A stretch of 32,021 nt of DNA. Source: Flavobacteriales bacterium. GTDB taxonomy: Bacteria; Bacteroidota; Bacteroidia; Flavobacteriales; Flavobacteriaceae. The stretch's first letter is position 1. Each line of letters opens with the position of its first letter. The stretch is taken from positions 1-32,021 of the forward strand of contig JALSTJ010000415.1 of NCBI GenBank assembly GCA_026983815.1. Direction: 5' to 3'. The notes beneath the pieces were generated by a model. It was not told the origin of the DNA, did no database searches, and worked only from the letters and a program-made list of their open reading frames with translations. Shown here in pieces: positions 3,329 to 25,270 of this stretch. The position numbers and the translations under genes were made by a program.

Positions 3329-4393
3329 TTATTCAACAATGATTTTTTTCACCGATGTATTTTCTTGACTTTTAATCAAAAGAATATACATTCCTTGCAA
3401 TTCTAGTGGAAGATGAATATTTTTAAAATTTTTTTGGACAATTTGTATTTTTTTGCCGGAAAGATCCATAATATCTATTTCCTGAATTTTGTCCTGATTT
3501 AGGTTTTTGATATGAAGAACATGATCTGGTATAGGATTTGGATAAATTACCCATTTGTTAGTTTTATTATTAGGAGTTGCATTGGTCGGGTCCCAAATTT
3601 GTGCAACCCATTCGGGATGGTCTATATACGGATTTCTGTTTCCTTGAAAATTATAGACCGCATTGTTTCTATCAATTTCTCTTTGAGAAACAGGGTCATT
3701 ATAATGCCATTGAAGCAGGATATTTAGGAACCAATTGCTAAATACTTGGTTGCTGGTGTGATTTAGCATATCATGATCCCAACCGGCAACCTGATCTTCA
3801 TATCGAGTTGCAAAATAGAATAACATACGGGCAATATCTCCTTTGAATTCATCTATGGGTTCAAAAACAATTCCATTATATCCCGATGTAGAATTATGTC
3901 CGAGTTTTGAGCCGTTGGTTGAAGTCCAAGTAGGATTGGAGACTTCTCCAAATGGATAATTGCTTCTTCTATTGTTTACATATCCATCGGTGGGAACAAC
4001 AAAATGGGCGTCGCTTTTCATCGGTGCAGCCGAACCAAATACACTTTGCGGGACCAGATGTTCTCTATTGTAACATGAACCCTCTCCTGAATAATTTCCA
4101 CATTTATCCGAAATGTGATGATATTCATAAGCATCAGGACCATTAGGTTTTTCGGAATACATATCCAAGACGGTTCCATCGTTTTCATAATAATTATCCG
4201 TATCGCTTGTTTGATAACAAGTATATAAATCACTATAAGAATGAGGATTGTGTGAGTTTGTAATGATATTTTTTAATGCTGTTTTTAGTTGATATCCACT
4301 CAAACCTTGTGCATTATCATAATATCCTGCGGGTATTTGTGCTTGGAGGTGAAAGCTTATAATGAGTAGGAGTAAAGCTAGTTTTTTCATCAT
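3329..4393 (-). CDS. Secreted endonuclease I family nuclease with T9SS type A C-terminal sorting domain
   Basis: Signal peptide MMKKLALLLLIISFHLQAQ. Endonuclease I motifs are present: NREHLVPQS and SDAHFVVPTDGYVNNRRSNYPFG, with NPYIDHPEW near the end of the catalytic domain. The last ~74 aa look like a Por/T9SS sorting tail. Confidence 0.85.
   Translation of the reverse strand: MMKKLALLLLIISFHLQAQIPAGYYDNAQGLSGYQLKTALKNIITNSHNPHSYSDLYTCYQTSDTDNYYENDGTVLDMYSEKPNGPDAYEYHHISDKCGNYSGEGSCYNREHLVPQSVFGSAAPMKSDAHFVVPTDGYVNNRRSNYPFGEVSNPTWTSTNGSKLGHNSTSGYNGIVFEPIDEFKGDIARMLFYFATRYEDQVAGWDHDMLNHTSNQVFSNWFLNILLQWHYNDPVSQREIDRNNAVYNFQGNRNPYIDHPEWVAQIWDPTNATPNNKTNKWVIYPNPIPDHVLHIKNLNQDKIQEIDIMDLSGKKIQIVQKNFKNIHLPLELQGMYILLIKSQENTSVKKIIVE
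3332..3553 (-). other. T9SS type A (Por secretion tail) C-terminal sorting domain of the nuclease
   Basis: C-terminal 74 aa are WVIYPNPIPDHVLHIKNLNQDKIQEIDIMDLSGKKIQIVQKNFKNIHLPLELQGMYILLIKSQENTSVKKIIVE. This shows the YPNP start, D..GK..., G.Y.L.I and KK(I/L)I(V/K) pattern typical of TIGR04183-type CTDs. Confidence 0.7.
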
Positions 4394-6474: not shown

Positions 6475-8865
6475 TTAAGGTTTCCCTACAATTTGAAAAG
6501 GTCTAATCATCACATAAACATTAGTAATTTTCATTGTAGAAGAACCATCAGTAATACCATAAAGATGTAACTCCCAAATGTCAGTTCCTGCATTCCAAGC
6601 TTTCCACTGAGATTCTACTATATATTTTCCGGGACTGGTATTATTCCAGGTCCAAGTGTCAGAAGTTGTAATAGGAGTTACGTCTGATGCATTATTGATA
6701 GCGTGTAATTGGAACTGATTTCCTAAGCCGGAAGCATTGGATACCCTGACAAATACTTTTACTTGAACCAAGCCTTGCAATTGATAAATTACAGGATTAA
6801 AACCTGCTTCCATAAGATTTAAGTCGGCATTGGTGTTTTGAAATACTGTATATTCGTTACCACTCCATAAGTTGATTGTCGAAACTTGATTTTTTGAAGT
6901 GGTATAGCCTTTGAACATCCCCGCCCAAGATTTGTTGTCATTATCATCCACCTCACCATATACTGCAATGTGTCTTCCATTACCATTATTTTTAGCAACA
7001 TTATAAGATCCTACATGTGTCCCATTACCTAAATCAGATACTTCATTGTAAGTTCCGAAATGATCTCCATCACCATTGTCTATGAAAACCGAAGGATTAT
7101 TTAGTAAATCACGACCAATAATATTTAAATTACCATATTGTCTTCCTCCAACAATCATATTGGAAGCATCAGATTTGGCAATAATACTGTTAAGATTTGC
7201 AATTTGCAATCCTTGTAATTGACTCCCGACATGTCCGCCGGCTAAGACATTATTGGTACCGATGTGAGTCCCATTACTGTTTATTTCGGAATTATTTAAC
7301 AAATCCAATCCAATTATATTAAATGTACCATTATGTATTCCCGAACCTCGATCATTTAAGTTATTTACTGTTCCGAAATGATTTCCGGTTGTATTGGTAG
7401 GTGTATGATTTGCATAATTATATCCGATAATATTCATTCCTCCTATATGTTTACCATTTCCTGTGCTTAAAATATTATTTAAAGAGGTTATATGTTCGCC
7501 ATTACCATCCCCCATAATTACATCAGTATTTCCTATTCTTTTGGCATCACTGTCTCCCGATACTGGAATTGGAGTGGTGGGTGCAGTCTGTGTAACATAA
7601 GCCCCCAAAATATTAACAGTTCCTGCATGTGAGGCATTTCCAATATCAGAAAGTGTATTGAAAATTCCAATATGTTTTCCAGTGGTTTGGGTGGGAGTTT
7701 GGTTGGTTGGATCATATCCCAAAGAATTTCCGATACCAATATGTAAGCCATTCCCTGTACTAAAAACAGCATTTCCTTCAGCAATATGAATTCCGCTACC
7801 ATTTCCTGCAACAATGTTTATAGCTCCAACTCTTTTTCCATTGCTGTCGTTGGTAATAGGGTCAATGGAGGTAGGGTTGTTTTCATGAACGCCAGCTCCA
7901 ATAGAGTTTAAAGTTCCAACATGAATTGCAGTTCCATTATTTTTAATTTCATTAACTACTCCGATTTGCTTTCCTGTTCCTGTATTTAATATTCTATTGA
8001 AAGCTCCAAATTGTGAGCCATTCCCTGTTCCTCCAATTCTTTGATATTGACCAAAATGTATTCCGTCTTTGCTATTATCAATAAAAGTGTAATAAGAATA
8101 AATAATTCCTTCTGTGTTGTTATTAAATCCTAAATAATTTAATACTCCATAGGTAGCTCCGGTTCCTTGCGAATTATGAATATAATTATAATCTCCAACC
8201 ATATTTACATCATTGTTTCCACTTATATCAGAAACATAGCCATAGGAATTCTTATTACTTCCGATAATATCGGTTTCAAAACCGGTAAGTGCATCATAAT
8301 TTGTATTTCCAATATTTCCTCCTAAAGCAGAATAAACTCCAATTTTTCCCAAAGAAGTCGGCATTGGTCCATTACTGTTAAAAAAGCCGGATATTCTTAA
8401 AATTGAAGTATCAGTGTTGGCTTGATTTACTTTTAATACACTTGATTTGGAATCATCGGTAATATCCAATCGATATTCCGGAGTATTTTTTCCAATGGCG
8501 ACATTTCCCATATGATAAATATCATCATTGATATCTGTTGGGGAATCGGTTGTTCCGGTTTTGAACCAGTCTTTATCGCTAGAGGAAGTGTTAGAACCTA
8601 TTTGATTCCAAGTAGTTCCATCCCAAAACCAAAAACTTTTGGTATCTGTATCGTATACTGTCAGCCCATCTTCAGAAGCAGATAAAGAAGCAGCCAAATT
8701 TGTTCTGTCAGCGGTAGTAAATCTTGGAATTAAAATTCCCTTGGTATTTGAAGATATATCTAACATTGCATTAGTGTTAGGCGTATTTCCGGTATTATTA
8801 ACTGCAACTTGTGCTTGAATTAAATTAACGGAAATCAATATAAAAAATAATATAATTGTTTTCAT
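6475..8865 (-). CDS. Secreted Gly/His/Asn-rich repeat protein (beta-solenoid-like), function unknown
   Basis: The ORF is open to 8904, but the ATG at 8865 gives a clean signal peptide MKTIILFFILISVNLIQAQ. The core (about 6955..8367) has ~19 copies of a G-x-G-x-H-(I/V/F)-G-x-x-N motif. The C-terminal ~140 aa are non-repetitive with no recognisable T9SS CTD. Confidence 0.75.
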   Translation of the reverse strand: MKTIILFFILISVNLIQAQVAVNNTGNTPNTNAMLDISSNTKGILIPRFTTADRTNLAASLSASEDGLTVYDTDTKSFWFWDGTTWNQIGSNTSSSDKDWFKTGTTDSPTDINDDIYHMGNVAIGKNTPEYRLDITDDSKSSVLKVNQANTDTSILRISGFFNSNGPMPTSLGKIGVYSALGGNIGNTNYDALTGFETDIIGSNKNSYGYVSDISGNNDVNMVGDYNYIHNSQGTGATYGVLNYLGFNNNTEGIIYSYYTFIDNSKDGIHFGQYQRIGGTGNGSQFGAFNRILNTGTGKQIGVVNEIKNNGTAIHVGTLNSIGAGVHENNPTSIDPITNDSNGKRVGAINIVAGNGSGIHIAEGNAVFSTGNGLHIGIGNSLGYDPTNQTPTQTTGKHIGIFNTLSDIGNASHAGTVNILGAYVTQTAPTTPIPVSGDSDAKRIGNTDVIMGDGNGEHITSLNNILSTGNGKHIGGMNIIGYNYANHTPTNTTGNHFGTVNNLNDRGSGIHNGTFNIIGLDLLNNSEINSNGTHIGTNNVLAGGHVGSQLQGLQIANLNSIIAKSDASNMIVGGRQYGNLNIIGRDLLNNPSVFIDNGDGDHFGTYNEVSDLGNGTHVGSYNVAKNNGNGRHIAVYGEVDDNDNKSWAGMFKGYTTSKNQVSTINLWSGNEYTVFQNTNADLNLMEAGFNPVIYQLQGLVQVKVFVRVSNASGLGNQFQLHAINNASDVTPITTSDTWTWNNTSPGKYIVESQWKAWNAGTDIWELHLYGITDGSSTMKITNVYVMIRPFQIVGKP

Positions 8866-8912
8866 AATGAAAGGTTTTTTGTGAAAAACACAAGTTAAAA
8901 ACATGTAAATTT

Positions 8913-8954
8913 AATAAAAAAAACAATACTCATGAATTTTCATGAGTATTGTTT
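8913..8954 (-). terminator. Rho-independent terminator after the OmpA-family gene
   Basis: Perfect inverted repeat AAACAATACTCATGAA (8921..8936) / TTCATGAGTATTGTTT (8939..8954). On the minus strand the stem is followed by a U-run (plus-strand A-run 8916..8923). Confidence 0.8.
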
Positions 8955-10722: not shown

Positions 10723-11637
10723 TTAAAAGAACCTGGGTGATTGAAAACGGGCACTATTTTCGTCGGTTGATAAATAATATCTGATAAAGCCTTCGTGAGA
10801 ACCATAATTGGTTCTGTAAAAACGACTTTGATCCCAATCGAAAGCATAACCCATATGCAATTTCCTGGTTACATTTACACCTATAAGCAAACTGTATGCC
10901 GAATTGAATCTGTAAGCAATTCCGGTAGTAAGAGTTTCACTCCATTTCATATTGATACTCAATTCGGCTGAAATGGGTAATTGGTCGGAATATCTAATTA
11001 AAAAAGAAGGTTGTAAAATACTTCTCTTAGATAAATTGAAATTATATCCTCCCATAAAATAGGCATGTAAAAGTCTTTTATCTTGTTCGTATTGGTTGTT
11101 TTTATGAATTTTTTGCAAATTTAAATTAGGTGTTGAAATACCCAAATACCAATTCTCTGCATATAAAAATGCTCCTAATCCAACATCAAAATCTATGGCA
11201 TTATAATCTTCTGAAAAAATATTTTCGGAATCTTTGATTAATAGTTTGTTTAGGTCAAATTTGTGATTGTAAATTCCAGCATCTACTCCTAAGGAAAGAA
11301 ATGTAAAATAATCTAATTCTAAATTGTAAGCAAACTGGAATTTTCCAATGATTTTAGAAACGGGACCAGCATCATCTTTGGATAATTCTATTCCAAATGC
11401 TGCTTTTTCCAAAGGATATTGAAATGATAGATTTGTAGTTGTAGGGGCGCCACTTACTCCTACCCATTGGGATCGGTGCAAAAGTGCAACCGATATTTTT
11501 CCATCCACTCCAACATATCCCGGATTAATCCCTCCTTTATTATACATATATTGTGTAAACAAAGGAAAATCTTGAGCTTGAATGCTACTTATTACAAGTA
11601 TTATCAAAAGCAATCCTATGTAAAGTTTTTTATTCAT
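10723..11637 (-). CDS. T9SS membrane protein, PorP/SprF family
   Basis: From the ATG at 11637 the protein begins MNKKLYIGLLLIILVISSIQAQDFPLFTQYMYNKGGINPGYVG, the typical PorP/SprF N-terminus (Q.D..FSQYM.N....NPAY.G). It is about 304 aa of beta-barrel-like sequence. The start overlaps the stop of the upstream giant gene (TAATG). Confidence 0.85.
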   Translation of the reverse strand: MNKKLYIGLLLIILVISSIQAQDFPLFTQYMYNKGGINPGYVGVDGKISVALLHRSQWVGVSGAPTTTNLSFQYPLEKAAFGIELSKDDAGPVSKIIGKFQFAYNLELDYFTFLSLGVDAGIYNHKFDLNKLLIKDSENIFSEDYNAIDFDVGLGAFLYAENWYLGISTPNLNLQKIHKNNQYEQDKRLLHAYFMGGYNFNLSKRSILQPSFLIRYSDQLPISAELSINMKWSETLTTGIAYRFNSAYSLLIGVNVTRKLHMGYAFDWDQSRFYRTNYGSHEGFIRYYLSTDENSARFQSPRFF

Positions 11638-14600
11638 TATTTTAAAATATATAAATAACCGGCTTTGTTTTTCCATTTTCCATCTTCTTTATATTCAAAC
11701 ATATAATAATAAGTTCCGGAAGGCAATTTTTTGCCATTTAATCCAAAACCTTTAAATTTCACATTATTATTATCATAATTTTTGCCTTCCCAAACTTTAT
11801 AATGCCAACGATCCACAATCAATACTTTATTTTCGGGATATTTATCTACATTTTCTATGAACATAAAGTCATTCTTTCCATTTCCATTGGGTGAAATAGC
11901 ATTATAGATTATGATTTCTCTATCATCGGTATCATCTAAATAATCGGGTATTCCATCTGAATCGGTATCAATTGCATCATCGGGTTCATGATTTCCGTTA
12001 TCATCTGCATGTTCATTCAAAGTGAGAATACCATCATCATCATCATCGTTATCTAAATAATTAGGTGTTCCATCCCCATCTGTGTCGTCATTGGTAGGGT
12101 CTCCATCTTGAGGATAATTGTTATGAATGTCTACATCTTCATATATGGTATAAATTCCGTCTCCATCATCATCTATATCCAAGTAGTTGGGTATTCCATC
12201 ATTATCGGTATCCAAGGCATCATCGGGATACCCATTGGTATTGTCGTCAGGATGTTCATCGGCAGTTAATACCGCATCATTATCATCATCGGTATCCAGA
12301 TAGTCAAGAATTGAATCACTATCGGAATCTTGATAAGAATAGTTGATAGTTCCGCTATCTGGAGAGGTTTCCAAGGAATCGGGCATTCCGTTATTTCCAA
12401 CGGTTCCATCATCCGTTCCGTCCATATTGGCATCGGTTGCGGCAGTTTGACCGGATTCTACAATATCGAACAAACCATCGTTATCGGAATCCAAATCAAA
12501 ATGATTTGGAATGCCATCTCCATCGGTATCAAAACCGGGTTCTATTTGGTTGTTGTCATCTCCTATAGTATTATCATTGTCATCATCATCCAAATATGCA
12601 GGAACATAATCATTATCATTATCTGCGGAAGGATTTACACCACCGGCTTCATCTATATCGGGTATTCCATCATTATCATCGTCAATATCTGTATAATCGG
12701 GTATTCCATCTTGATCATTGTCTTCCATGTGATCATCCAAATAATCAGGAATTCCATCATGATCGGTATCCCAAGCATCTTCGGGTTCATGATTTCCATT
12801 GTCATCGGGATGTTCGTTGATAGTTAGAATGCCATCATTGTCATCATCATCATCTAAATAGTTGGGAATTCCGTCCCCATCGGTATCATCATTGGTGGGG
12901 TTACCATCTTGCGGATAATTATTGGGTAATTCGATATCTTCAAAATCGGTATAAATACCATCACCATCATCATCTCTATCCAAGAAATTGGGACTGGCGT
13001 CGTTATCGGTATCCAAGGCATCATCGGGATATCCATTGGTATTATCATCCGGATGTTCATCGGTAGTAGGAATATGGTCATTATCGTCATCAGTATCCAG
13101 AAAATCAGGATTTCCATCATTATCAGTATCTTGTAAAGTAAAAATCAAGGAGCCACTATCGGCAGGGTTTTCCAAATCATCAACTAATCCGTTGGTTCCT
13201 ACATTTCCTTCGAGTTTTCCATCCATATCAGCATCAGTTCCCACTGGAATGGAAAGTCGACCGGACTCTGCGGTGTCCCAGACTCCATCATTATCGGAAT
13301 CGTAATCTAAGAAGTTGGGAATATTGTCGCCGTCAAAATCATATGCAGGTTCTACAATGCCATTATCATTTCCTATTGCAGGATCCGAGTCATCGTCATC
13401 CATGAATACAGGAATGTTATCTCCATCGTCATCGGTTAGAGGATCAATTCCACCTGATTCATCTATATCGGGGATACCATCATTATCATCATCTATATCT
13501 ACGTTATCCAAAATTCCGTCATTGTCATAATCATTTCCATCCAAATAATCAGGGATACCATCATTATCAGAATCCCAAGCATCTTCGGGTTCATGGTTTC
13601 CATTGTCATCGGGATGTTCATTAATTGTTAATATTCCATCATTATCATCATCGGTATCCAAATAGTTGGGTATACCATCATCATCAGTATCGTCGTTGGT
13701 AGGATCTCCATCTTGAGGATATGTATTTGGTAAAGCAATATCTTCGAAATCGGTGTAGATTCCATCGCCATCGTCATCACGGTCATGATAGTTAGGATCT
13801 CCGTTGCTATCGGTATCCAGAGCATCATCGGGGTATCCATTTCCATTATCATCCGGATGTTCATTGATGGTGGGAATATGGTCATTATCGTCGTCGAAAT
13901 CCAAGAAATCATCTGAAGTGTCATTATCCCAATCCATTATAGAGTAGTTAATGTTTCCACTATCCGGTGTGGTTTCCAAAATATCTGCCAAACCATTGGT
14001 TCCGACATTGTCATCCAATTGACCATCAAAATTTGCATCAGTTGCCACAGTTTGACCGGATTCTGTTAAATCATATAATCCATCACCATCGGAGTCAAGA
14101 TCTAAATGATTGGCAATACCGTCATTATCCAGATCCCATGCTGCTTCTACAGTTCCGTTATCGTTTCCAATACTATTGTCATTATCATTATCATCTAGAT
14201 ATACGGGTACGCCGTCATTGTCGTTATCAACAAAAGGATTTTGCCCATTATATTCTCTTGTATCCGGAATTCCATCGTTATCATCATCTAAATCGGTACT
14301 ATCTGGAATACCGTCTCCATCGCTATCTATACCATCAATATTATCAAGATAATCCGGTGTTCCATCATTATCGGAATCCCAAGCATCTTCAGGTTCATGG
14401 TTGCCGTTATCATCGGGGTGTTCAAAGGCGGTATCTATTCCATCATTATCATCATCGGTATCTAAATAATTAGGAATTCCATCTCCGTCGGTATCGTCAT
14501 TAGTGGGATCACCGTCTTGAGGATAATTGTTGGGTAGTGCAATGTCTTCGAAATCGCTATAAATACCATCTCCATCATCATCTCTATCGATGTAATTAGG

Positions 14601-17600
14601 GTTCCCGTCATTGTCAGTATCCAAGGCATCATCGGGGTAACCATTATGGTTGTTATCCGGTTGTTCTCCTGTGGTAGGTATATGATCATCATCATCATCA
14701 GTGTCCAAGAAATTATAGTAACTATCATTATCGGTATTAATTAATGTATAATTGATAGTTCCGCTATCCGGAGAAGTTTCTACATTATCTACCAATCCAT
14801 TACTTCCGACACTGCCTTCTAAAATTCCATCGGAATTTGTATCGGTTCCTGTTGTTTGTCCGGATTCTGCAGCATCAAAAAGTCCGTCGCCATCAGAATC
14901 TTTATCAAAATGATTGGGGACCCCATCGCCGTCAATATCAAAGGCGGGCTCAATTTGTCCATTATTATCACCTATGGTATTATCGTTGTCATCATCATCT
15001 AAATAAACGGGAACACCATCGTTGTCTGCGTCTGTTAAGGGATCAATACCGCCTGACTCATCCGTGTCCGGAATTCCATCATTGTCATCATCTATATCTA
15101 TACTATCGGCAATGCCATCATTGTCATGGTCATCAGCCACATTATCATAAAAGTCAAGATAATTTGGTGTTCCATCACCATCAGAATCCAGGGCATCATC
15201 GGGGATATGGTTTCCATCATCATCAGGATGTTCGTTTATGGTTAAAATACCGTCATTATCATCATCATTATCCAAATAATTTGGGATACCGTCAAGGTCG
15301 GTATCGTCATTCATAGGATTTCCATCAACAGGAAAATTGTTGGGTAATTGTATGTCTTCAAAATTGGTATAAATACCATCGCCATCATCATCTCTGTCGA
15401 GATAGTTTGGTATTCCATCACCATCAGTATCTAAAGCATCATCGGGATATCCATTGGAATTATCATCGGGATGTTCATTCATAGTCAATACATGGTCATT
15501 ATCATCATCTCGATCCAGAAAATCATTAAAGAAATCGCTATCTGTATTTTGCAAAGTATAATTGATAGTTCCACTGTCCGGAGAAGTTTCTACATTATCT
15601 ACCAATCCGTTTGTTCCAACACTTCCTTCTAAGATTCCATCGGAATTGGTATCTGTTCCGGTAGTTTGTCCGGATTCTACTGCATCAAGAATTCCATCAT
15701 TATCAGAGTCTAAATCGAAATGGTTAGGAATTCCATCATTATCAATATCATATAATGGTTCGATTTGTCCATTGGCGTCGCCAACGGAATTATCATTATC
15801 ATTATCGTCTAAATATAAAGGAACTCCATCGCCATCAGCATCAGTAAGAGGATCCATTCCATTGGATTCATCTACATCTGGAATACCGTCATTATCATCA
15901 TCAATATCTACATTGTCATCAATTCCATCATTATCATGGTCATTGGGATTAATATCATAAGGGTCTAAGTAATTTGGTGTTCCATCATTGTCATCATCAA
16001 TGGCATCTTCGGGTTCATGGTTTCCGTTATCATCCGGATGTTCATCAATTGTTAATGTGCCGTCATTATCATCATCATTATCTAAATAATTGGGAATTCC
16101 ATCTAAATCGGTATCATCATTCATGGGATTACCATCTTGAGGATAGTTGTTGGGTAAAGCAATATCTTCAAAATCGGTATAAATTCCATCGCCATCATCA
16201 TCTCTATCCAAATAATTGGGTATTCCGTCAAAATCCGTATGCAGGGCATCTTCGGGATATCCATTATGATTATCATCGGCATGTTCGTTGGAGGTGAGAA
16301 CATGATCATTATCATCATCGCGATCTAAGAAATCAGAGAATAGGTCATTATCGGTATTTTGTATCGTATAATTTATTGTTCCGGAATCGGGGGAAGTTTC
16401 TACTTCATCTGCCAAACCATTAGCGCCAACATTTCCATCCAGCATTCCATTCATATCGGCATCTGTTCCGACAGGAACGGTAAGTCTTCCGGATTCAGCT
16501 GTATCCCACAATCCGTCTCCATCTGAATCTAAATCGAAATGATTGGGAATTCCGTCATTATCAATATCATAAAGAGGTTCTATTTGTCCATTATCATTTC
16601 CGATGGTATTGTCATTGTCGTTATCATCGAGATAAACGGGTACACCATCATTATCTGCATCGGTTAGGGGGTCTATTCCGTTAGATTCATCAGTATCCGG
16701 TATTCCGTCGTTATCGTCATCCAAATCTACATTATCTTCTATTCCATCATTATCATGATCATTAGGATTTGTAATATGATCTAGATAGTCGGGTGTTCCA
16801 TCGCCATCTGTGTCCAGTGCATCTTCGGGTTCATGGTTTCCGTTATCATCGGGGTGTTCGTTAATGGTAAGTGTTCCATCATTATCATCATCTTCATCGA
16901 GATAATTGGGTATACCGTCATTATCGGTATCGTCATTTTGGGGGTTCCCATCTTGAGGATAATTATTTGGGAGGGCAATATCTTCATAGACTGTATAAAT
17001 TCCATCGCCATCATCATCCGGATCGAGATAATTATAAATGGTATCATTATCGGTATCTAAACCATCATCTGGATATCCGTTCCCATTATCATCTGGATGT
17101 TCATTTATAGTCGGAATTGAATCATTGTCATCATCTTTATCTAGATAATCGGGATTGGAGTCTGAATCGGTATCTTGAATGGTATAATTGATAACGCCAC
17201 TATCAGTAACTGTTTCTACTTCGTCGCAAAGTCCATTAGTTCCAAAGGGACCTTCAAGGTATCCATCATGGTTTACATCATTTCCGGATGTTCTGCCGGA
17301 TTCAGCTGCATCATATAATCCATCACCATCCGAATCCAAATCAAAATGATTGGGGATTCCATCCAGGTCAAAATCAAAAGCGGGTTCTACAAAGTTGTTA
17401 TTATCTCCAATAGAATTATTATTATCATCATCATCCAGATAAACAGGAACACCATCGCCATCGGCATCGGTTAGAGGATCGATTCCCCCACTTTCAATAA
17501 CATCAGGAATCCCGTCATTATCATCATCAATATCAATATTATCTCGGATTCCATCATTATCATGGTCAAGTGGATCATTAACGGGATCGAGATAATCGGG

Positions 17601-18494
17601 TGTTCCATCGCCGTCGGCATCAGTAGCATCTTCCGGGATACCATTATTATTGTCGTCAGGATGTTCATCTGAGGTTAATATTCCGTCATTATCATCATCA
17701 TTGTCCAGATAATTAGGAATCCCGTCGGCATCGGTGTCATCGTTCATTGGGTTTCCGTCCTGTGGAAAGTTATTGGGCAAGGCAATATCTTCCCAGCGTG
17801 TATCAATACCATCTCCATCGTCGTCGGGATCGCGATAATTTGGTAATCCACCGCCATCGGTATCCAATGCATCGTCAGGGTATCCGTTTCCATTGTTATC
17901 GGGTTGTTCGTTTTCAGTTAAAACCAAATCGTTATCATCATCTATATCGAGAAAATCGGGGATTGTATCTGTGAAAGCACCAAACTGGTCTGTATTTTGT
18001 AAAGTATAATTGATTTGTCCGGTATTATTTCCAAGTTCCACATCATCAATTAGACCATTGGGACCGACATTTCCCTCCAATTGTCCGTTCGTATCTGAAT
18101 CTATACCCGATGTTCTACCGGATTCAGCAGCATCCCATAAACCGTCATTATCGGAATCCAGATCCAAAAAATTGGGTGTACCATCACCATCAACATCGAA
18201 ACCGGGTTCAATTTGTCCGTTGGCATCTCCTACGTTAAAGTTGTTATCATCATCATCTAGATAAACGGGAATTCCATCGTGGTCTGCATCTGTAAGTGGA
18301 TCGATTCCATTACCTTCATCAACGTCTAAAATTCCATCATTATCGTCATCAATATCAATATCATCTGTTATTCCATCGCCATCCGAATCATTAAAAGTGA
18401 TAGTAAAAGGACTTTTAAATGAATGAATATTGGTTGTAAATCCTTGATTTACAATTAATAACAGAAGTGAAATAAAAAAATAAGTTTTTTTCAC
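11637..18494 (-). CDS. Giant (2285 aa) hyper-acidic cell-surface protein: 8 tandem modules of thrombospondin type 3-like Ca-binding repeats plus a T9SS type B sorting domain
   Basis: Uninterrupted 6.86-kb ORF with GTG start and signal peptide MKKTYFFISLLLLIVNQGFT. Eight ~265-274-aa modules are rich in DxDxDGxxD loops. The C-terminal 94 aa match the gliding-associated/CHU_C type B CTD. Confidence 0.9.
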   Translation of the reverse strand: MKKTYFFISLLLLIVNQGFTTNIHSFKSPFTITFNDSDGDGITDDIDIDDDNDGILDVDEGNGIDPLTDADHDGIPVYLDDDDNNFNVGDANGQIEPGFDVDGDGTPNFLDLDSDNDGLWDAAESGRTSGIDSDTNGQLEGNVGPNGLIDDVELGNNTGQINYTLQNTDQFGAFTDTIPDFLDIDDDNDLVLTENEQPDNNGNGYPDDALDTDGGGLPNYRDPDDDGDGIDTRWEDIALPNNFPQDGNPMNDDTDADGIPNYLDNDDDNDGILTSDEHPDDNNNGIPEDATDADGDGTPDYLDPVNDPLDHDNDGIRDNIDIDDDNDGIPDVIESGGIDPLTDADGDGVPVYLDDDDNNNSIGDNNNFVEPAFDFDLDGIPNHFDLDSDGDGLYDAAESGRTSGNDVNHDGYLEGPFGTNGLCDEVETVTDSGVINYTIQDTDSDSNPDYLDKDDDNDSIPTINEHPDDNGNGYPDDGLDTDNDTIYNYLDPDDDGDGIYTVYEDIALPNNYPQDGNPQNDDTDNDGIPNYLDEDDDNDGTLTINEHPDDNGNHEPEDALDTDGDGTPDYLDHITNPNDHDNDGIEDNVDLDDDNDGIPDTDESNGIDPLTDADNDGVPVYLDDNDNDNTIGNDNGQIEPLYDIDNDGIPNHFDLDSDGDGLWDTAESGRLTVPVGTDADMNGMLDGNVGANGLADEVETSPDSGTINYTIQNTDNDLFSDFLDRDDDNDHVLTSNEHADDNHNGYPEDALHTDFDGIPNYLDRDDDGDGIYTDFEDIALPNNYPQDGNPMNDDTDLDGIPNYLDNDDDNDGTLTIDEHPDDNGNHEPEDAIDDDNDGTPNYLDPYDINPNDHDNDGIDDNVDIDDDNDGIPDVDESNGMDPLTDADGDGVPLYLDDNDNDNSVGDANGQIEPLYDIDNDGIPNHFDLDSDNDGILDAVESGQTTGTDTNSDGILEGSVGTNGLVDNVETSPDSGTINYTLQNTDSDFFNDFLDRDDDNDHVLTMNEHPDDNSNGYPDDALDTDGDGIPNYLDRDDDGDGIYTNFEDIQLPNNFPVDGNPMNDDTDLDGIPNYLDNDDDNDGILTINEHPDDDGNHIPDDALDSDGDGTPNYLDFYDNVADDHDNDGIADSIDIDDDNDGIPDTDESGGIDPLTDADNDGVPVYLDDDDNDNTIGDNNGQIEPAFDIDGDGVPNHFDKDSDGDGLFDAAESGQTTGTDTNSDGILEGSVGSNGLVDNVETSPDSGTINYTLINTDNDSYYNFLDTDDDDDHIPTTGEQPDNNHNGYPDDALDTDNDGNPNYIDRDDDGDGIYSDFEDIALPNNYPQDGDPTNDDTDGDGIPNYLDTDDDNDGIDTAFEHPDDNGNHEPEDAWDSDNDGTPDYLDNIDGIDSDGDGIPDSTDLDDDNDGIPDTREYNGQNPFVDNDNDGVPVYLDDNDNDNSIGNDNGTVEAAWDLDNDGIANHLDLDSDGDGLYDLTESGQTVATDANFDGQLDDNVGTNGLADILETTPDSGNINYSIMDWDNDTSDDFLDFDDDNDHIPTINEHPDDNGNGYPDDALDTDSNGDPNYHDRDDDGDGIYTDFEDIALPNTYPQDGDPTNDDTDDDGIPNYLDTDDDNDGILTINEHPDDNGNHEPEDAWDSDNDGIPDYLDGNDYDNDGILDNVDIDDDNDGIPDIDESGGIDPLTDDDGDNIPVFMDDDDSDPAIGNDNGIVEPAYDFDGDNIPNFLDYDSDNDGVWDTAESGRLSIPVGTDADMDGKLEGNVGTNGLVDDLENPADSGSLIFTLQDTDNDGNPDFLDTDDDNDHIPTTDEHPDDNTNGYPDDALDTDNDASPNFLDRDDDGDGIYTDFEDIELPNNYPQDGNPTNDDTDGDGIPNYLDDDDDNDGILTINEHPDDNGNHEPEDAWDTDHDGIPDYLDDHMEDNDQDGIPDYTDIDDDNDGIPDIDEAGGVNPSADNDNDYVPAYLDDDDNDNTIGDDNNQIEPGFDTDGDGIPNHFDLDSDNDGLFDIVESGQTAATDANMDGTDDGTVGNNGMPDSLETSPDSGTINYSYQDSDSDSILDYLDTDDDNDAVLTADEHPDDNTNGYPDDALDTDNDGIPNYLDIDDDGDGIYTIYEDVDIHNNYPQDGDPTNDDTDGDGTPNYLDNDDDDDGILTLNEHADDNGNHEPDDAIDTDSDGIPDYLDDTDDREIIIYNAISPNGNGKNDFMFIENVDKYPENKVLIVDRWHYKVWEGKNYDNNNVKFKGFGLNGKKLPSGTYYYMFEYKEDGKWKNKAGYLYILK
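11640..11921 (-). other. T9SS type B (gliding motility-associated, SprB-type) C-terminal sorting domain
   Basis: Sequence is REIIIYNAISPNGNGKNDFMFIENVDKYPENKVLIVDRWHYKVWEGKNYDNNNVKFKGFGLNGKKLPSGTYYYMFEYKEDGKWKNKAGYLYILK. It fits the TIGR04131 pattern: (FT/IS)PNGDG.ND.F.I.....YP.N.L.I.NRWG..V....NY.N.W.G....G..LP.GTYYY. Confidence 0.85.
11922..18389 (-). repeat. In-frame tandem array of eight ~0.8-kb coding repeats
   Basis: Unit boundaries come from hand alignment of the protein: 17568..18389, 16761..17567, 15942..16760, 15132..15941, 14328..15131, 13533..14327, 12723..13532 and 11922..12722. Units 4 and 5 share long near-identical DNA stretches (compare about 15560..15700 with about 14750..14890). 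Confidence 0.85.
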
Positions 18495-18554
18495 AGTAGT
18501 ATTTTTTTCAAACCATAAATATAATAAAAAAATGTATAATAAAAATTTATTTTA

Positions 18555-20178: not shown

Positions 20179-20381
20179 AAAAAAAGCCTGTACCTATTTA
20201 TATTTTTGATTAAACCCCGAATAAACAGGTTTAGGACTAACTTGATGGTCAAACTTCCACTAATCCGAAAAAATACGGAATCCCTAAGGGATTGTGGCTT
20301 GTTTTTGCATCAAAGACTCATCCTTTTTAATTTGTAAGTGTTGAGTTTAACAAAATCAAATAAGCACAGGCAGTTTTGTAA
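20179..20381 (-). ncRNA. Candidate structured ~200-nt RNA (6S-like rod; alternatively a structured rny leader)
   Basis: Hand fold of the minus strand. GCCUGUGCUUAUUU (plus 20358..20371) pairs with AAAUAGGUACAGGC (plus 20186..20199): 14 contiguous pairs including 2 G.U. UUUUGUUAAACUC (20343..20355) pairs with GGGUUUAAUCAAAA (20204..20217): 13 bp with one bulge. Inner pairing joins UUGAUG and CAUCAA (20308..20313 with 20242..20247). Apical hairpins lie at 20279..20293 and 20264..20279. A U7 tract (plus A-run 20179..20185) follows the 3' arm. Ends are approximate. Confidence 0.4.
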
Positions 20382-21117: not shown

Positions 21118-21681
21118 ATGGCTATTGAGGATTTTATTAATGAAATTACGCCGCTTCCTGATGATATTTTATTGGAAGTAAAAGAAAAATTTATAAAAAA
21201 AGAATTTTCCAAAGGTGATAAAATAATTGAACAAGGCAAAGTTTGTAAATATCTTTACTTTATTGAACACGGTTTGGCAAGAAGCTATTATATCAATGAA
21301 AAAGGAAAAGATATCACTGTCTGGTTTTTTGCTGAAAATAATGTCATGACTGGTGTTGAAAGTTTTTTTCAACGGAAACCCAGTATGTATGAGATGGAAT
21401 TTTTGGAAAATAGTATTGTCTATGCCATTTCATATCAAAATTTGAATCTGCTTTTTGATAAATATCATGAACTGGAAAGATTTGGTCGTTTATTGTCCAT
21501 TCGATTACTAACTGAAGTTGTAGATAAGCTGATTGCCATGCAATTTCAATCAGCCAAAGAACGATATCAATTCATGATAAATAAGTTTCCCAATATTTCT
21601 TATAGGGCACCACTGGGTCATATCGCTTCATATCTGGGAATTACCCAAGAAACTCTTAGCAGAATACGGGCTCAAATCTGA
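21118..21681 (+). CDS. Crp/Fnr-family transcriptional regulator (cNMP-binding-like domain + C-terminal HTH)
   Basis: 187 aa with an N-terminal beta-roll effector domain (GDKIIEQGKVCKYLYFIEHGLARSYY) and a C-terminal HTH (HIASYLGITQETLSRIRAQI). Confidence 0.85.
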   Translation: MAIEDFINEITPLPDDILLEVKEKFIKKEFSKGDKIIEQGKVCKYLYFIEHGLARSYYINEKGKDITVWFFAENNVMTGVESFFQRKPSMYEMEFLENSIVYAISYQNLNLLFDKYHELERFGRLLSIRLLTEVVDKLIAMQFQSAKERYQFMINKFPNISYRAPLGHIASYLGITQETLSRIRAQI

Positions 21682-21694
21682 TTTTTTATAAAGT

Positions 21695-21723
21695 GATTTT
21701 TTTGATTTAGGTCAAAAAAAATC
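21695..21723. promoter_or_regulatory. Candidate Crp/Fnr-type operator: palindrome containing TTGAT-N4-GTCAA
   Basis: GATTTTTTTGA (21695..21705) and TCAAAAAAAATC (21712..21723) are inverted repeats. The core TTGAT (21702..21706) TTAG GTCAA (21711..21715) differs by 1 nt from the FNR consensus TTGAT-N4-ATCAA. Its centre lies ~30 nt upstream of the tolC -7 box. Confidence 0.35.
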
Positions 21724-21738
21724 TCCTGTCTACATTCA

Positions 21739-21746
21739 TATCTTTG
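21739..21746 (+). promoter_or_regulatory. -7 box TATCTTTG for the TolC-HlyD-ABC-2 operon
   Basis: Exact TAnnTTTG 24 nt upstream of the ATG at 21771. No TTTG sits at the normal -33 spacing; the palindrome occupies that position instead. Confidence 0.45.
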
Positions 21747-21770
21747 CATCGTTTTTTAAAAAAGAAAATT

Positions 21771-23147
21771 ATGCAAAGAAAAAGTTATCATATATTTATC
21801 ATATTATTTATGATCTCAGCGGCAGAAATTTATGCCCAAAAAATTCAACCGGATTTAAAATTTTTAATCAATCGTGCAATTAAAAAAAATCATGAAAAAA
21901 AAATAAATAATTTTGAAATTGAACGAACTAAAATCCAACAAAAAAACTTGTGGAATAACTATTTACCTAAACTTTATTTAAATGCATCCTATACAAGACT
22001 CGATAATGATATAAAACTTGATAACAATTTGCAAAAATTGTTGATGGGCACAGAGAAATTATTAATAAAAGAGGCATATGGAATTCCATTTAATACACCG
22101 TTACCGCCGCAAGTTTCTTTAATACCTATACCAAAAATTCAAGATAAAAATATTTTGAAAAGTAGTCTTGATGCCGAATGGTTATTGTTTTCCGGGTTAA
22201 AGATTTCTCAAGCATCTAAAGTGTTGGAACATAAGTCTAAAGCATTGGAATATCAAAATAATATAATTGAAGAACGATTGGTTGGAAAACTAGTCAAAAC
22301 CTATCATCAATTGGCTTTGATTCAATCTACACAACAAGTATTAAATACTATGGATGATTATCTTCAAAAACAAGAAAACTTTGTGTCTAAAGCCAAGAAA
22401 AACGGATTGGCAATAGAACTTGATTTGCAAAAAATTGCTTTGGCTCAACAAAAATTAAAAATAAAACAATTGTCTTTGGAAAATAGCAAGAGATTGGTAT
22501 TGGAAACATTACATCAGATGACGGATATTCCTACAGATAGGCTTAAAACAATGGATATAGGGCTTGATAAAATACTTATCAATTTTGATAAATTGAAAGG
22601 AGAACAACCTTATGAAATGCATGCACTTAATGAAAAATTAACCGCACAAAAATATCAGAAAAAAATGGCTTATACCGCTTATATTCCTAAGTTAATGCTC
22701 AAGGGTCATTATGAGCTACTAAAAGATGATTTAACTATGTTAGATCCAAAATGGTATGTTGGAATAGGTTTGAAATGGGATATTTTTGATGGATTTAAAG
22801 CATGGAATCAATCCAAACAAATCCAATTGCAAGAAAATCAAACCCAAGAAAAAATCAGAGAAGCGGATGAGTTAATACATTTACAACAGTTACAAGCCCA
22901 ATTGAATTATCAAACATCTTTGGAAAAAATTGAGGAAACCAAAAAACAAGTAAAAATTGCAAAATATACCTACCAACTTTCTAAAAAACAATATGAAAAT
23001 GGATTGATCAGTATAACAGATTTACTAAAATCATTAAATGACTTAAAAATAGCTAAATTGGATTATACTAAAGCATTGTATGAAGAAAATAATGCAGCAA
23101 TTGCTTATTTAAAAGCATATGGGAACTTATTGAATATAATTAAATAA
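21771..23147 (+). CDS. TolC-family outer membrane efflux protein
   Basis: The ORF is open from 21744 (TTG), but the ATG at 21771 gives MQRKSYHIFIILFMISAAEIYAQ (signal peptide). It has two long coiled-coil/beta repeats typical of OEP/TolC (LKFLINRAIKKN..., ...YENGLISITDLLKSLNDL...). Confidence 0.85.
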   Translation: MQRKSYHIFIILFMISAAEIYAQKIQPDLKFLINRAIKKNHEKKINNFEIERTKIQQKNLWNNYLPKLYLNASYTRLDNDIKLDNNLQKLLMGTEKLLIKEAYGIPFNTPLPPQVSLIPIPKIQDKNILKSSLDAEWLLFSGLKISQASKVLEHKSKALEYQNNIIEERLVGKLVKTYHQLALIQSTQQVLNTMDDYLQKQENFVSKAKKNGLAIELDLQKIALAQQKLKIKQLSLENSKRLVLETLHQMTDIPTDRLKTMDIGLDKILINFDKLKGEQPYEMHALNEKLTAQKYQKKMAYTAYIPKLMLKGHYELLKDDLTMLDPKWYVGIGLKWDIFDGFKAWNQSKQIQLQENQTQEKIREADELIHLQQLQAQLNYQTSLEKIEETKKQVKIAKYTYQLSKKQYENGLISITDLLKSLNDLKIAKLDYTKALYEENNAAIAYLKAYGNLLNIIK

Positions 23148-23150
23148 AAA

Positions 23151-24116
23151 ATGATAAAAATGAAAAGTATAAAATTAATATTATTAGGATTAATGATCCT
23201 ATTTTTTGGCTCGTGTCAAAATAAAAAAATGACAGATCATAGAGGAAAAATAAAATTTGATAAAATACATATTGCTCCCAAAATAACGGGAAGAGTAAAA
23301 GAAATTAGAGTAAAAGAAGGACAAACTATTCAAAAAGGTGATACTTTGCTCGTATTAGAAGTTCCTGAACTTCAAGCTAAAAAAATGCAAGCTATGGGTG
23401 CATTTCAGGCAGCTAAAGCTCAATTGCAAATGGCATATAATGGGGCTACCATAGAGCAAGTGAAACAAATTGATGGAAAATTAGAAGCAGCACAATCTCA
23501 ATTGGATTTTGCCAAAGAATCTTATGAAAGAATTAAAAATATGTATACAGATTCGCTCGTGCCTTCGCAAAAATATGATGAAGTCAGAATGAAATATCGA
23601 ATGGCTCAAGCACAAGTCAATGCAATAAAAGCTAAAAAGAAAGAGGTTCTAAAAGGAACAAGAAAGGAAGTTATTGCACAAGCTAAAGGACAGTTGAAAA
23701 GAGCTTTGGGAGCTTTGGAAGAGATAAAAACAGCCGAAAATGAAAGATATATCGTTGCGCCACAGGATTTCAGAATTGACCATATCAGTTTACAAAAAGG
23801 CGAATTAGCAACTGCAGGATACACATTAATAAATGGGACTTTATATAATTCAGCTTATTTTAGATTTAGTATTCCCGAGCATAATATTCAACACTTTAAG
23901 GTGGATCAGATTGTGGAATTAACCAATCCGTTTATCAATGAAAAATTAAAAGCTAAAGTAGTAGAAATAAAACCTTTAAATCATTATGCAGATATAACGG
24001 CGCCGGCGACTTCTTATCAGTTGGGTGAAACTGTTTATGAAATGAAATTGATCCCTTTGGATATTCATAAAACAGGAAATTTTAAACAAAACATGACATT
24101 TTTGATTTTAAATTAG
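23151..24116 (+). CDS. HlyD-family periplasmic adaptor (membrane fusion) lipoprotein
   Basis: Lipobox LILFFGSC, a lipoyl-like hairpin (ITGRVKEIRVKEGQTIQKGDTLLVLE) and a long alpha-helical hairpin. It starts 3 nt after tolC. Confidence 0.85.
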   Translation: MIKMKSIKLILLGLMILFFGSCQNKKMTDHRGKIKFDKIHIAPKITGRVKEIRVKEGQTIQKGDTLLVLEVPELQAKKMQAMGAFQAAKAQLQMAYNGATIEQVKQIDGKLEAAQSQLDFAKESYERIKNMYTDSLVPSQKYDEVRMKYRMAQAQVNAIKAKKKEVLKGTRKEVIAQAKGQLKRALGALEEIKTAENERYIVAPQDFRIDHISLQKGELATAGYTLINGTLYNSAYFRFSIPEHNIQHFKVDQIVELTNPFINEKLKAKVVEIKPLNHYADITAPATSYQLGETVYEMKLIPLDIHKTGNFKQNMTFLILN

Positions 24117-24121
24117 AAATA

Positions 24122-25270
24122 ATGAAAAGGACATTTAATTTAATAAAAACAGAATTTAAAAGATTTTTTAACAATGATGTTTTGGTTGCGATTTTCTTTG
24201 GAGCTCCACTGCTTTATGGTATTTTGTTCGGTTTTGTATATCGACAAGCAAAAGTCGTCAATCTTCCTGTGGCTGTGGTAGATATGGATCAATCAGAATT
24301 GTCAGATAAAATTATAGATGCTTTAAATGATAATGAAAATATTGACATAAAAGATGTTTTTTCTTCAACAGCCAATCTCAAAGAAGAGCATTTAAAAAAA
24401 GATTATGTAGCTGTAATAAGAATTCCGGAACATTTTCAAAATCAAATCAACCAGGCAAGACATCCTGAATTATTGATTGAGCTTAATATGAGCAATATTT
24501 TAAATGCAAATTTTGCCAGCAAAAGTATTCAAAGAGTTTTGGGAACATTGAATGCGGGTATTGAAATAGAAGCATTAAAAAAGAAAGGCTTGAATCCTGA
24601 AATAGCCAAAAATAAATTTGAAAGCTTTAAGATTTCTTATCACAAATTATATAATCCCAATAGTAACTATCTGTATTTTATGCTTCCTGCGCTTCTGGGA
24701 GCAATAATGCAGCAAGTGATTTTTTTGGCTATGGCACTGGTTTTTTCACGTGATTTTGAAGATGGGTATTGGAAAAAATTGACTTCTTTTAGCAAAAATC
24801 CATTTTATTTGATTTTTATAAAGTTAATTCCATATTTAATTTTGTCAGCAATAGTTTGGACAATTGTGGGGATTATTTACAATTATTTTGAAATTGCTTT
24901 TAATGTTTTCAATTTCCCTATGTTATGGATTGTTATTCTACTAACACTTGCTGCAATGTTTATAGGTATGTTATTTTCTTTATTAATTCCTAGTCAGTTA
25001 AAAGCTACTGAGTTTCTTATGGTTATCTCAACACCTGCTTTTATTTTGAGTGGTTTTACATGGCCTTTATCTGCTATGCCTAAATGGATAAAATTTATTT
25101 CAAATGCCATTCCCTTGACACATTTTCTACAAGCTTTTAAAAAAATAGCAATATATGGTGGAAGTTTTGGAGCTATTAATTCCCAAATGAAAGCATTACT
25201 TATAATAATCATTGTAAGTTTTACTTTAACATTTTTGGGGTTAGCCCTAAAATTAAAATCAAATGAATAA
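24122..25270 (+). CDS. ABC-2 type transporter permease (YhhJ/YbhS/YbhR-like)
   Basis: 382 aa with an N-terminal TM helix, a ~150-aa extracytoplasmic domain and then five more TM helices, which is the ABC2_membrane_3-like layout. It starts 5 nt after the adaptor gene. No Walker-A ORF is present anywhere in the window. Confidence 0.8.
   Translation: MKRTFNLIKTEFKRFFNNDVLVAIFFGAPLLYGILFGFVYRQAKVVNLPVAVVDMDQSELSDKIIDALNDNENIDIKDVFSSTANLKEEHLKKDYVAVIRIPEHFQNQINQARHPELLIELNMSNILNANFASKSIQRVLGTLNAGIEIEALKKKGLNPEIAKNKFESFKISYHKLYNPNSNYLYFMLPALLGAIMQQVIFLAMALVFSRDFEDGYWKKLTSFSKNPFYLIFIKLIPYLILSAIVWTIVGIIYNYFEIAFNVFNFPMLWIVILLTLAAMFIGMLFSLLIPSQLKATEFLMVISTPAFILSGFTWPLSAMPKWIKFISNAIPLTHFLQAFKKIAIYGGSFGAINSQMKALLIIIIVSFTLTFLGLALKLKSNE

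Follow-up and report, generated by a model that had tools for sequence, protein, structure and literature searches.

The locus described here raises the question of what a giant, extremely acidic bacterial protein composed almost entirely of calcium-type loops could do for the cell that makes it. Its gene lies in the first 32,021 nucleotides (hereafter the window) of contig JALSTJ010000415.1, from assembly GCA_026983815.1 of a Flavobacteriales bacterium. A previous sequence-only reading had described the product as a type IX secretion system (T9SS) cargo formed by eight modules of thrombospondin type 3 (TSP3)-like loops. Here we propose that this protein, which we refer to as the giant, is a cell-wall-anchored, Ca2+-stiffened, polyanionic T9SS fiber that most likely functions in planktonic Flavobacteriales as a Ca2+-dependent adhesion or aggregation fiber or as a surface coat, a reading to which we assign a probability of about 0.6. 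Its secretion, static anchoring, Ca2+ binding and function are features that we infer from the sequence.

An intact gene for eight modules of acidic loops

The giant is encoded by a single open frame with a GTG start and no internal stop, as previously described (Table 1). The protein has a mass of 248.6 kDa, in agreement with the earlier estimate of roughly 250 kDa, a pI of about 4.05 and a net charge of about -661. Aspartate accounts for 26.7% of all residues and for 28.1% of residues 36–2191, while asparagine and glycine contribute 11.8% and 10.1%. The 2,156 module residues include 3 Lys and 15 Arg, and C423 is the sole Cys among the 2,285 residues. Thus, the earlier impressions of at least one quarter Asp, near absence of basic residues from the modules and a single Cys were all accurate. 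By inspection, the protein begins with a probable Sec signal peptide, VKKTYFFISLLLLIVNQGFTT, in which KK is followed by a hydrophobic stretch; the orthologs start with equivalent signal-like stretches. The signal claimed by the sequence-only reading is thus probable, as judged by eye. Because merely ~14 residues, which are not conserved, separate the signal peptide from the first loop, the giant has no N-terminal head domain.

Residues 36–2191 form eight tandem modules that align end to end with pairwise identities of 62–80%. Their boundaries had been placed correctly, as the same boundaries delimit a single-copy unit in other proteins (see below). Modules 1 and 8 are the most divergent, and module 1 harbors a 5-residue insertion that is also found in orthologs. 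The motif DxDxDG occurs 86 times in the giant, at the 10–12 copies per module counted earlier, compared to 4.9 ± 2.3 (maximum 13) in 500 composition-preserving shuffles of the protein, indicating that the motif is not a by-product of Asp richness. The pattern D.D.DG.{5}[DE] has 77 instances, and the nested duplication of ~39 residues noted in the sequence-only reading is present in 16 copies, exactly two per module.

The loops fall into two types. The first, with exactly five copies in every module, is a 12-residue loop that follows D-x-[DN]-x-[DN]-[G/H]-x5-E and whose positions are conserved (14, 78, 145, 184 and 226 in module 4). The second, with five to nine copies per module (six in module 4), ends in Asp and typically reads DxDxDGxPNYLD. 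Degenerate Asp/Asn-rich stretches are also present. In an alignment of the module with segments from other giants that reach down to 43% identity, the columns that never vary consist almost entirely of D, N, E and G, with the addition of one Ile and one Pro. Two conserved His motifs, EHPDDNxNGYP and EHPDDNGNHEPED, are also found in the modules, in 16 copies each, with His otherwise rare in the protein; these motifs may provide each module with an extra site for a metal other than Ca2+.

The giant is a real, conserved gene and not an assembly artifact. Two observations could be taken to indicate an artifact, a decaying pseudogene or a spurious low-complexity reading frame: related metagenome contigs often break within the gene, and a lookup of the exact protein in public assemblies returned no record. 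However, the 6.9 kb are free of stops, both the probable signal peptide and the C-terminal domain (CTD) are intact, at least three other assemblies carry intact orthologs with the same module order, and the proportion of nonsynonymous differences (pN) is far lower than that of synonymous differences (pS), making such an explanation barely credible. The longest exact DNA repeat within the gene is only 32 nt and, between modules, synonymous sites are saturated (pS 0.64–0.86; pN 0.14–0.24). Hence, the module duplications are old and the copies would not be easy for an assembler to collapse or expand. The 810-bp period escaped Tandem Repeats Finder, given the program's period limit of 500 and the divergence of the copies in DNA. 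Contigs L003/L021, L022, L023 and L025 terminate within the gene for the giant, and in two cases the break lies about 5.65 kb upstream of porP. This pattern suggests heterogeneity among strains or an assembly break that repeats cause at a recurrent position.

Read on the plus strand, the same interval is filled with stops and Ile runs. Several Ile-rich plus-strand frames of 80–168 residues (12330–16297) were rejected as genes, since they are reverse-complement images of GAT/AAT codons. The GC content climbs from 0.30 to 0.40 across the gene in a window of roughly 30% GC. Horizontal transfer was discarded as the cause because the locus keeps its synteny within the core genome and the GAT/GAC/GGA codon content explains the rise.

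To assess conservation, the giant was compared with loci L001–L004 from four related Flavobacteriales assemblies. L004 contains an open frame of about 2,290 residues with eight modules, most of which pair with the same-numbered module of the giant. The L003 ortholog is cut by a contig end and retains at least six modules, which are positional orthologs of modules 3–8 of the giant (84–89% identity). The other two close relatives, P0001 (2,020 residues) and P0002 (1,752 residues), have seven and six modules, respectively. Between the giant and its L003 ortholog, pN is 0.086 and pS is 0.76, indicating that the protein is conserved under purifying selection.

Predicted structure of the module and its known relatives

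To obtain a structural view of the repeating unit, module 4 was modeled with AlphaFold2 (AF2) from an alignment of 30 diverse sequences. This run, which answers the earlier call for a one-module structure prediction in its ion-free form, resulted in a predicted local distance difference test score (pLDDT) of 92.7 and a predicted template modeling score (pTM) of 0.86, with all five models at 90 or above. Confidence falls only in the last 3–10 residues, which correspond to the inter-module linker. In the model, strands of three or more residues are absent and the helical turns are just 3–4 residues long. The five 4-residue turns sit exactly on positions 9–12 of the five Glu-ending loops. Of the seven 3-residue turns, five close an Asp-ending or degenerate loop, as does NYL in PNYLD. 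Each of the five Glu-ending loops of module 4, and five of its six Asp-ending loops, leads into a short helical turn. As modeled, the loops thus have the geometry of an EF-hand exit helix without the entering helix.

Foldseek searches of the PDB with this model recovered only calcium-wire proteins, with the best matches being thrombospondin-1 (TSP-1, E 5.5e-6), COMP (E 1.3e-5) and TSP-2 (E 2.5e-5); further matches were BamM (probability 0.92 over 68 columns), 1ux6 and the Capnocytophaga gingivalis OmpA. A search of viral structures returned nothing useful. The superimpositions on TSP-1, COMP and TSP-2 have TM-scores of only 0.13–0.16 and root mean square deviations of about 18 Å. With TM-scores so low, the similarity to Ca2+ wires is local, at the level of the loop, and not global. 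In the model, then, the building block is TSP3/BamM-like, and no solved structure in the PDB follows the same overall path as the 270-residue domain.

The thrombospondin/COMP wire (PDB 1ux6, 1yo8, 2rhp, 3fby) is composed of tandem DxDxDG loops and lacks secondary structure, as does the giant, and it holds about 26 Ca2+ in about 250 residues. By contrast, the giant is bacterial, is predicted to be exported by the T9SS and lacks a flanking EGF or lectin-like domain; with one Cys in 2,285 residues, it lacks the intra-repeat disulfides by which eukaryotic TSP3 repeats are defined. The earlier description of the loops as TSP3-like hence stands for their EF-hand/TSP3-like form and their local likeness to TSP, COMP and BamM, and falls for the family profile and the disulfides.

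By sequence, the only solved structure in the PDB that matches the module is the C-terminal calcium domain of BamM (PDB 9n2d chain D), with E values of 1e-3 for one module and 1e-4 for the profile. The NCBIfam BamM profile (NF053691) matches 21 stretches of the giant with 145 bits, compared to a cut-off of 315, and the same profile positions, around 254–292, are matched repeatedly. BamM (Fjoh_0050) displays this domain on the Flavobacterium cell surface, where it is devoid of secondary structure and is structured by seven Ca2+ (PMC12611786). BamM and the giant share the double-loop unit DTDxDGIxxxLD-xDDDxDGxxTxxE, and both are acidic proteins from Flavobacteria that lack regular secondary structure and reside on the cell surface, as is predicted for the giant. 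They differ in that BamM is a 388-residue lipoprotein of the BAM complex with an N-terminal peptidyl-prolyl isomerase (PPIase) domain and about seven Ca2+ in roughly 150–190 residues, whereas the giant is a predicted T9SS cargo with about 90 loops, without a PPIase domain and without a lipobox Cys.

Two other comparisons are more distant. The C. gingivalis OmpA (PDB 5wtl), a weak Foldseek match, is likewise a Bacteroidota envelope protein with TSP3-like Ca2+ loops. In the OmpA family these loops are few, lie in a periplasmic linker and are reported to be disulfide-dependent, while the giant has about 90, predicted to be outside the cell, and no disulfides. Giant RTX adhesins such as MpIBP are also surface proteins made of tandem repeats and are expected to owe their stiffness to Ca2+, similar to the proposal for the giant. 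RTX adhesins, however, use Ig-like repeats, type I secretion, GGxGxD nonapeptides and distal ligand-binding domains; the giant has no such distal domain, and the RTX-type pattern GG.G.D has no match in the protein.

Proposed export, anchoring and function

The last 94 residues of the giant, previously read as a type B T9SS sorting domain, match Pfam CHU_C (PF13585) over the complete model (positions 1–86 of 86) with an E value of 4.4e-19 and 68.8 bits against a cut-off of 27. Beyond CHU_C, a TIGR04131 hit below its cut-off and the local BamM matches, no other family was found in Pfam/NCBIfam scans of the giant; catalytic, lectin, Ig and cadherin domains, which the sequence-only reading had also failed to see, SprB-type repeats and PPIase domains were not detected. 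The gene is followed by one for a PorP/SprF-like protein, the ATG of which overlaps the TAA stop of the giant (TAATG), and then by a gene for a PorE-like protein with TPR, PD40 and OmpA regions. The assignment of the giant as a type B cargo is supported by its CHU_C domain, the adjacent cognate PorP/SprF-like gene and the presence of another T9SS cargo in the window. The minus-strand location, this putative anchoring operon and BamM as the closest solved relative were all absent from the sequence-only reading. With these additions, and apart from the failed TSP3 profile match and the supposed isolation of the architecture, computation supports the core of that reading, a T9SS-exported, polyanionic surface fiber of Ca2+ loops alone.

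Studies on characterized T9SS cargos provide a framework for these genes. In F. johnsoniae, type B CTDs require a cognate PorP/SprF-like shuttle, encoded directly downstream, in roughly stoichiometric amounts (PMC12618676), a requirement that the TAATG overlap fits. The type B CTD is uncleaved, so that the cargo remains on the PorP-like barrel; PorP binds PorE, which in turn binds peptidoglycan (PMC9143113). Fjoh_3952, which is encoded with a PorE homolog and is the sole such cargo examined, forms static foci, while SprB and Fjoh_4750, tracked cargos encoded without one, move along helical tracks (PMC12618676). The Fjoh_1123 CTD, followed only as an SprB fusion, formed foci that were for the most part static; a mobile minority appeared in about 3% of cells (PMC12618676). 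The gene order or complex of Fjoh_3952/Fjoh_3951/Fjoh_3950 and of PG1035/PorP/PorE from P. gingivalis is the same as in the operon of the giant, and a static anchoring model applies to them (PMC12618676, PMC9143113). This likeness concerns the gene order or complex; PG1035 runs at about 50 kDa, and the passenger of the giant is an all-loop fiber with 27% Asp.

Based on these data, we propose the following mechanism. Once exported by Sec and passed through the T9SS translocon, the giant would stay bound through its CTD to its co-translated PorP/SprF-like barrel in the outer membrane, which would be tied to peptidoglycan by the PorE-like protein, the presumed tether. Because the operon holds cargo, PorP-like and PorE-like genes and the cargo and shuttle are translationally coupled, the product would be a static filament, attached at the outer membrane by its C-terminus and with module 1 farthest from the cell. 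This filament would consist of eight independently folding domains of ~270 residues joined by linkers of 5–8 residues, each domain with almost no regular secondary structure and with about 11 canonical 12-residue DxDxDG loops plus several degenerate ones that would chelate Ca2+. Scaled from BamM and the thrombospondin wire, the load would be roughly 100–200 Ca2+ per molecule. As there is no head domain, the Ca2+-loaded fiber would itself be the functional surface, and we favor adhesion or aggregation through this surface as its role.

Several points weigh against this proposal. The giant protein is known here only as its gene, and its static anchoring would be an extrapolation from a single F. 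johnsoniae example. The many Pfam TSP_3 (PF02412) matches expected by the sequence-only reading did not appear: the whole giant has none, and single modules score 13.2–14.6 bits where the cut-off is 25. The giant does not formally belong to the TSP3 family, although it probably works like a TSP3 wire. That reading had anticipated TIGR04131 as the only profile besides TSP_3; TIGR04131 reached 34.0 bits, marginally under its cut-off of 35, BamM matched in addition, and the absence of any further domain held. The AF2 models contain no ions, the TM-scores of the Foldseek matches are only 0.07–0.16, and a first AF2 run with 21 close sequences resulted in a pLDDT of 52 and non-significant Foldseek matches, showing that a good model depends on the alignment. 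For the presumed tether, the best NCBIfam scores (CHU_0125, 378.4 bits; PorE, 285.8 bits) are both under the equivalog cut-offs. Its conservation also matches that of RNase Y, far above that of the PorP-like protein or RsmB, and it may be the general PorE of the genome rather than a dedicated tether. Finally, the neighborhood of the giant gives no pointer to a ligand or a regulator.

The main rival is a passive polyanionic brush or coat with no adhesive role, which would act as a steric and electrostatic barrier (to phage, grazers, fouling or cationic antimicrobials) or as a surface cation reservoir. A net charge of about -661, a short and non-conserved mature N-terminus and the lack of a ligand-binding head would all suit such a coat, the anchoring evidence applies to it equally, and the acidic Ca2+ domain of BamM forms a non-specific ‘canopy’ on the surface (PMC12611786). 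However, the position-specific conservation of the modules and the retention of non-ligand residues across lineages exceed the needs of a charge brush, and the usual description of type B cargos is as adhesins, known or predicted (PMC12618676). We therefore consider a purely passive role unlikely, although it is the alternative that we take most seriously. Closer to the adhesive role that we favor, yet put forward only tentatively and likewise unlikely, is the idea that the module is an undescribed Ca2+-organized fold and the headless eight-domain chain an ‘ion-bridge adhesin’, in which partly coordinated Ca2+ would bind carbonate minerals at their surface or the carboxylates or sulfates in gels of acidic algal polysaccharides. 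If so, planktonic Flavobacteriales would need neither a lectin nor an Ig domain to attach to marine particles.

A different possibility is that the giant is released and serves as a matrix, Ca2+-buffering or mineral-nucleating protein, for instance by cross-linking acidic polysaccharides or by nucleating or binding CaCO3. Acidic biomineralization proteins are Asp-rich, and the 26.7% Asp of the giant resembles them. The module is, moreover, also found in small proteins with type A CTDs, a class that can be released (PMC12618676). Type B CTDs, on the other hand, are uncleaved and stay on PorP-like proteins (PMC9143113), and the PorE-like gene in the operon argues for a tether, which renders release improbable. 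Less probable still is a mobile, SprB-like adhesin carried by the gliding machinery. A type B CTD with an SprF-family gene downstream is the arrangement of sprB-sprF, and relatives are named ‘gliding motility-associated C-terminal domain-containing protein’ in databases. Yet none of the mobile cargos SprB, Fjoh_4750 or Fjoh_1123 is encoded with a PorE-like gene, as the giant is (PMC12618676, PMC9143113), and the scans of the giant detected no Ig-like or SprB-type repeat.

Neighboring genes and spread of the module

On the minus strand, the order of genes is zapA, 6S-Flavo RNA, rny, giant, PorP/SprF-like, PorE-like, an 809-residue gene, rsmB and endonuclease I (Table 1). The 6S-Flavo RNA supports a Flavobacteriia origin for the window and, with the T9SS genes and the GC content of roughly 30%, places it in an uncultured Flavobacteriales lineage. 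The order zapA-rny-giant-porP-porE is kept in L001 and L004, the loci whose flanks extend that far; L002 and L003 begin at or inside the giant gene and show only giant-porP-porE and the genes downstream. Across L001–L004 the PorE-like protein has identities of 83–94%, similar to RNase Y, compared to 62–87% for the PorP-like protein and 55–82% for RsmB, and it is more conserved than either the cargo or the PorP-like protein. Remoter PorP homologs (≤34% identity) lie beside type B cargos that are not acidic, and a few have no adjacent cargo.

A terminator-like hairpin directly after the PorE-like gene is the probable 3′ end of the operon. A consensus scan found no terminator-like site in the spacer between rny and the giant gene, which hence has its own promoter or is read through from rny. 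A sigma-70 promoter scan returned 87 sites compared to 82 expected from shuffles, this consensus being uninformative on Bacteroidota promoters.

Table 1 Features of the giant locus and its surroundings in window coordinates.
Feature	Position	Strand	Remarks
Endonuclease I with type A T9SS tail	3329–4393	minus	Por_Secre_tail
809-residue secreted-looking protein with signal peptide	6475–8904	minus	no match in the Pfam copy or NCBIfam used
Terminator-like hairpin	8921–8954	minus	15-bp stem and T run; consensus scan only
PorE-like TPR/PD40 β-propeller/OmpA_C protein, 578 residues	8974–10710	minus	Pfam PD40, OmpA, TPR
PorP/SprF-like outer-membrane shuttle/anchor, 304 residues	10723–11637	minus	Pfam PorP_SprF, E 8e-62; TIGR03519, 222 bits (cut-off 90.55)
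Giant coding sequence, 2,285 residues and stop	11637–18494	minus	GTG start at 18494
Type B T9SS C-terminal sorting domain, residues 2192–2285	11640–11921	minus	Pfam CHU_C
Module 8, residues 1925–2191	11922–12722	minus	62–70% identity to other modules
Module 7, residues 1655–1924	12723–13532	minus	
Module 6, residues 1390–1654	13533–14327	minus	
Module 5, residues 1122–1389	14328–15131	minus	
Module 4, residues 852–1121	15132–15941	minus	modeled with AF2
Module 3, residues 579–851	15942–16760	minus	
Module 2, residues 310–578	16761–17567	minus	contains C423
Module 1, residues 36–309	17568–18389	minus	62–71% identity to other modules
Probable Sec signal peptide, about residues 1–21	18432–18494	minus	by inspection
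AT-rich spacer between rny and giant, 60 bp	18495–18554	minus	
6S-Flavo RNA (RF01685)	20212–20346	minus	86.4 bits (gathering score 85); between zapA and rny

The 809-residue gene was left out of the system, as it lies beyond the terminator-like hairpin and is absent from L004. Its product has a conserved N-terminal region, ‘ILIPRFT...GLTVYDTD...FWFWDG..W’, and many Gly/Asn-rich ‘GNGxHIGxxN’ repeats, and its orthologs carry PF26696 (PTL_trimer). The type A T9SS tail of endonuclease I indicates that this protein is probably a secreted nuclease; its L001 ortholog is longer (610 residues) and has an additional fn3 domain. On the plus strand, positions 21118–25270 encode a cNMP-binding regulator, a TolC-like outer-membrane factor (OEP) and reading frames of 321 and 382 residues, probably an efflux operon that appears unrelated to the giant.

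The module is found well beyond this locus. A profile search covering 1.84 billion representatives matched 8,272 clusters at E ≤ 1e-3, 4,190 at ≤ 1e-10 and 1,079 at ≤ 1e-30, and a search with the whole giant gave 4,125 matches at E ≤ 1e-10. The N-terminal half of the module (positions 1–143) is the more widely conserved part. Most relatives are 2,000–7,000 residues long, have 14–23% Asp and 50–120 DxDxDG motifs, and carry a type B or type A T9SS domain at the C-terminus; outside Bacteroidota, OmpA-like or JDVT-CTERM anchors take this place. Databases list them under generic labels, for instance ‘gliding motility-associated C-terminal domain-containing protein’ or ‘large repetitive protein’. 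P0037, P0059, P0102 and P0116 likewise consist of just loops and a CTD, and the giant and its two closest relatives, with 26–27% Asp, are the compositional extreme. The source organism is probably marine, because a Tara sequence falls in the cluster of P0019, a more distant module-bearing protein with 31% identity to the query.

The search for the module as a unit in other proteins, which had been suggested in the sequence-only reading, was successful. Complete modules with the same boundaries are present in small proteins with type A CTDs: P0152 has two DUF7507 domains, one module and a Por_Secre_tail, P0157 has one module, a DUF7507 domain, a Reg_prop propeller and a tail, and P0128 has two module copies. 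Since one or two copies sit in such small proteins, the module behaves as a mobile domain cassette. In these proteins it adjoins DUF7507/DUF11 Ig-like domains or a Reg_prop β-propeller. No Pfam model covers the module in P0152, P0157 or P0128, and in the giant no Pfam or NCBIfam model covers it.

TSP3 repeats in marine flavobacteria have received passing genomic mentions as putative adhesion or Ca2+-binding elements (PMC2668756, PMC5613140), and our literature search, which combined thrombospondin type 3 with T9SS and calcium, yielded no paper characterizing a protein of this kind. The 8,272 related clusters, the other giants of loops and a CTD and the reuse of the cassette show that the architecture is less isolated than the sequence-only reading had supposed. 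The giant is the purest natural array of the module, and its class is common in databases and unstudied. What is new, as judged from the model, is the 270-residue unit as a discrete, reusable and confidently predicted Ca2+-organized domain with neither a Pfam model nor a global structural match.

Aquatic Bacteroidota encode many giant Asp-rich T9SS proteins, and none was found with a described function or structure. The giant is the cleanest example that we found, with eight copies of one domain, a sorting signal and its own anchoring genes. Its operon offers a natural setting in which to test the proposed rule that type B cargos with a PorE-like gene beside them are statically anchored. The function of the module would help to annotate thousands of proteins named for a ‘gliding motility-associated C-terminal domain’ and would bear on how particle-associated marine bacteria build their surfaces.

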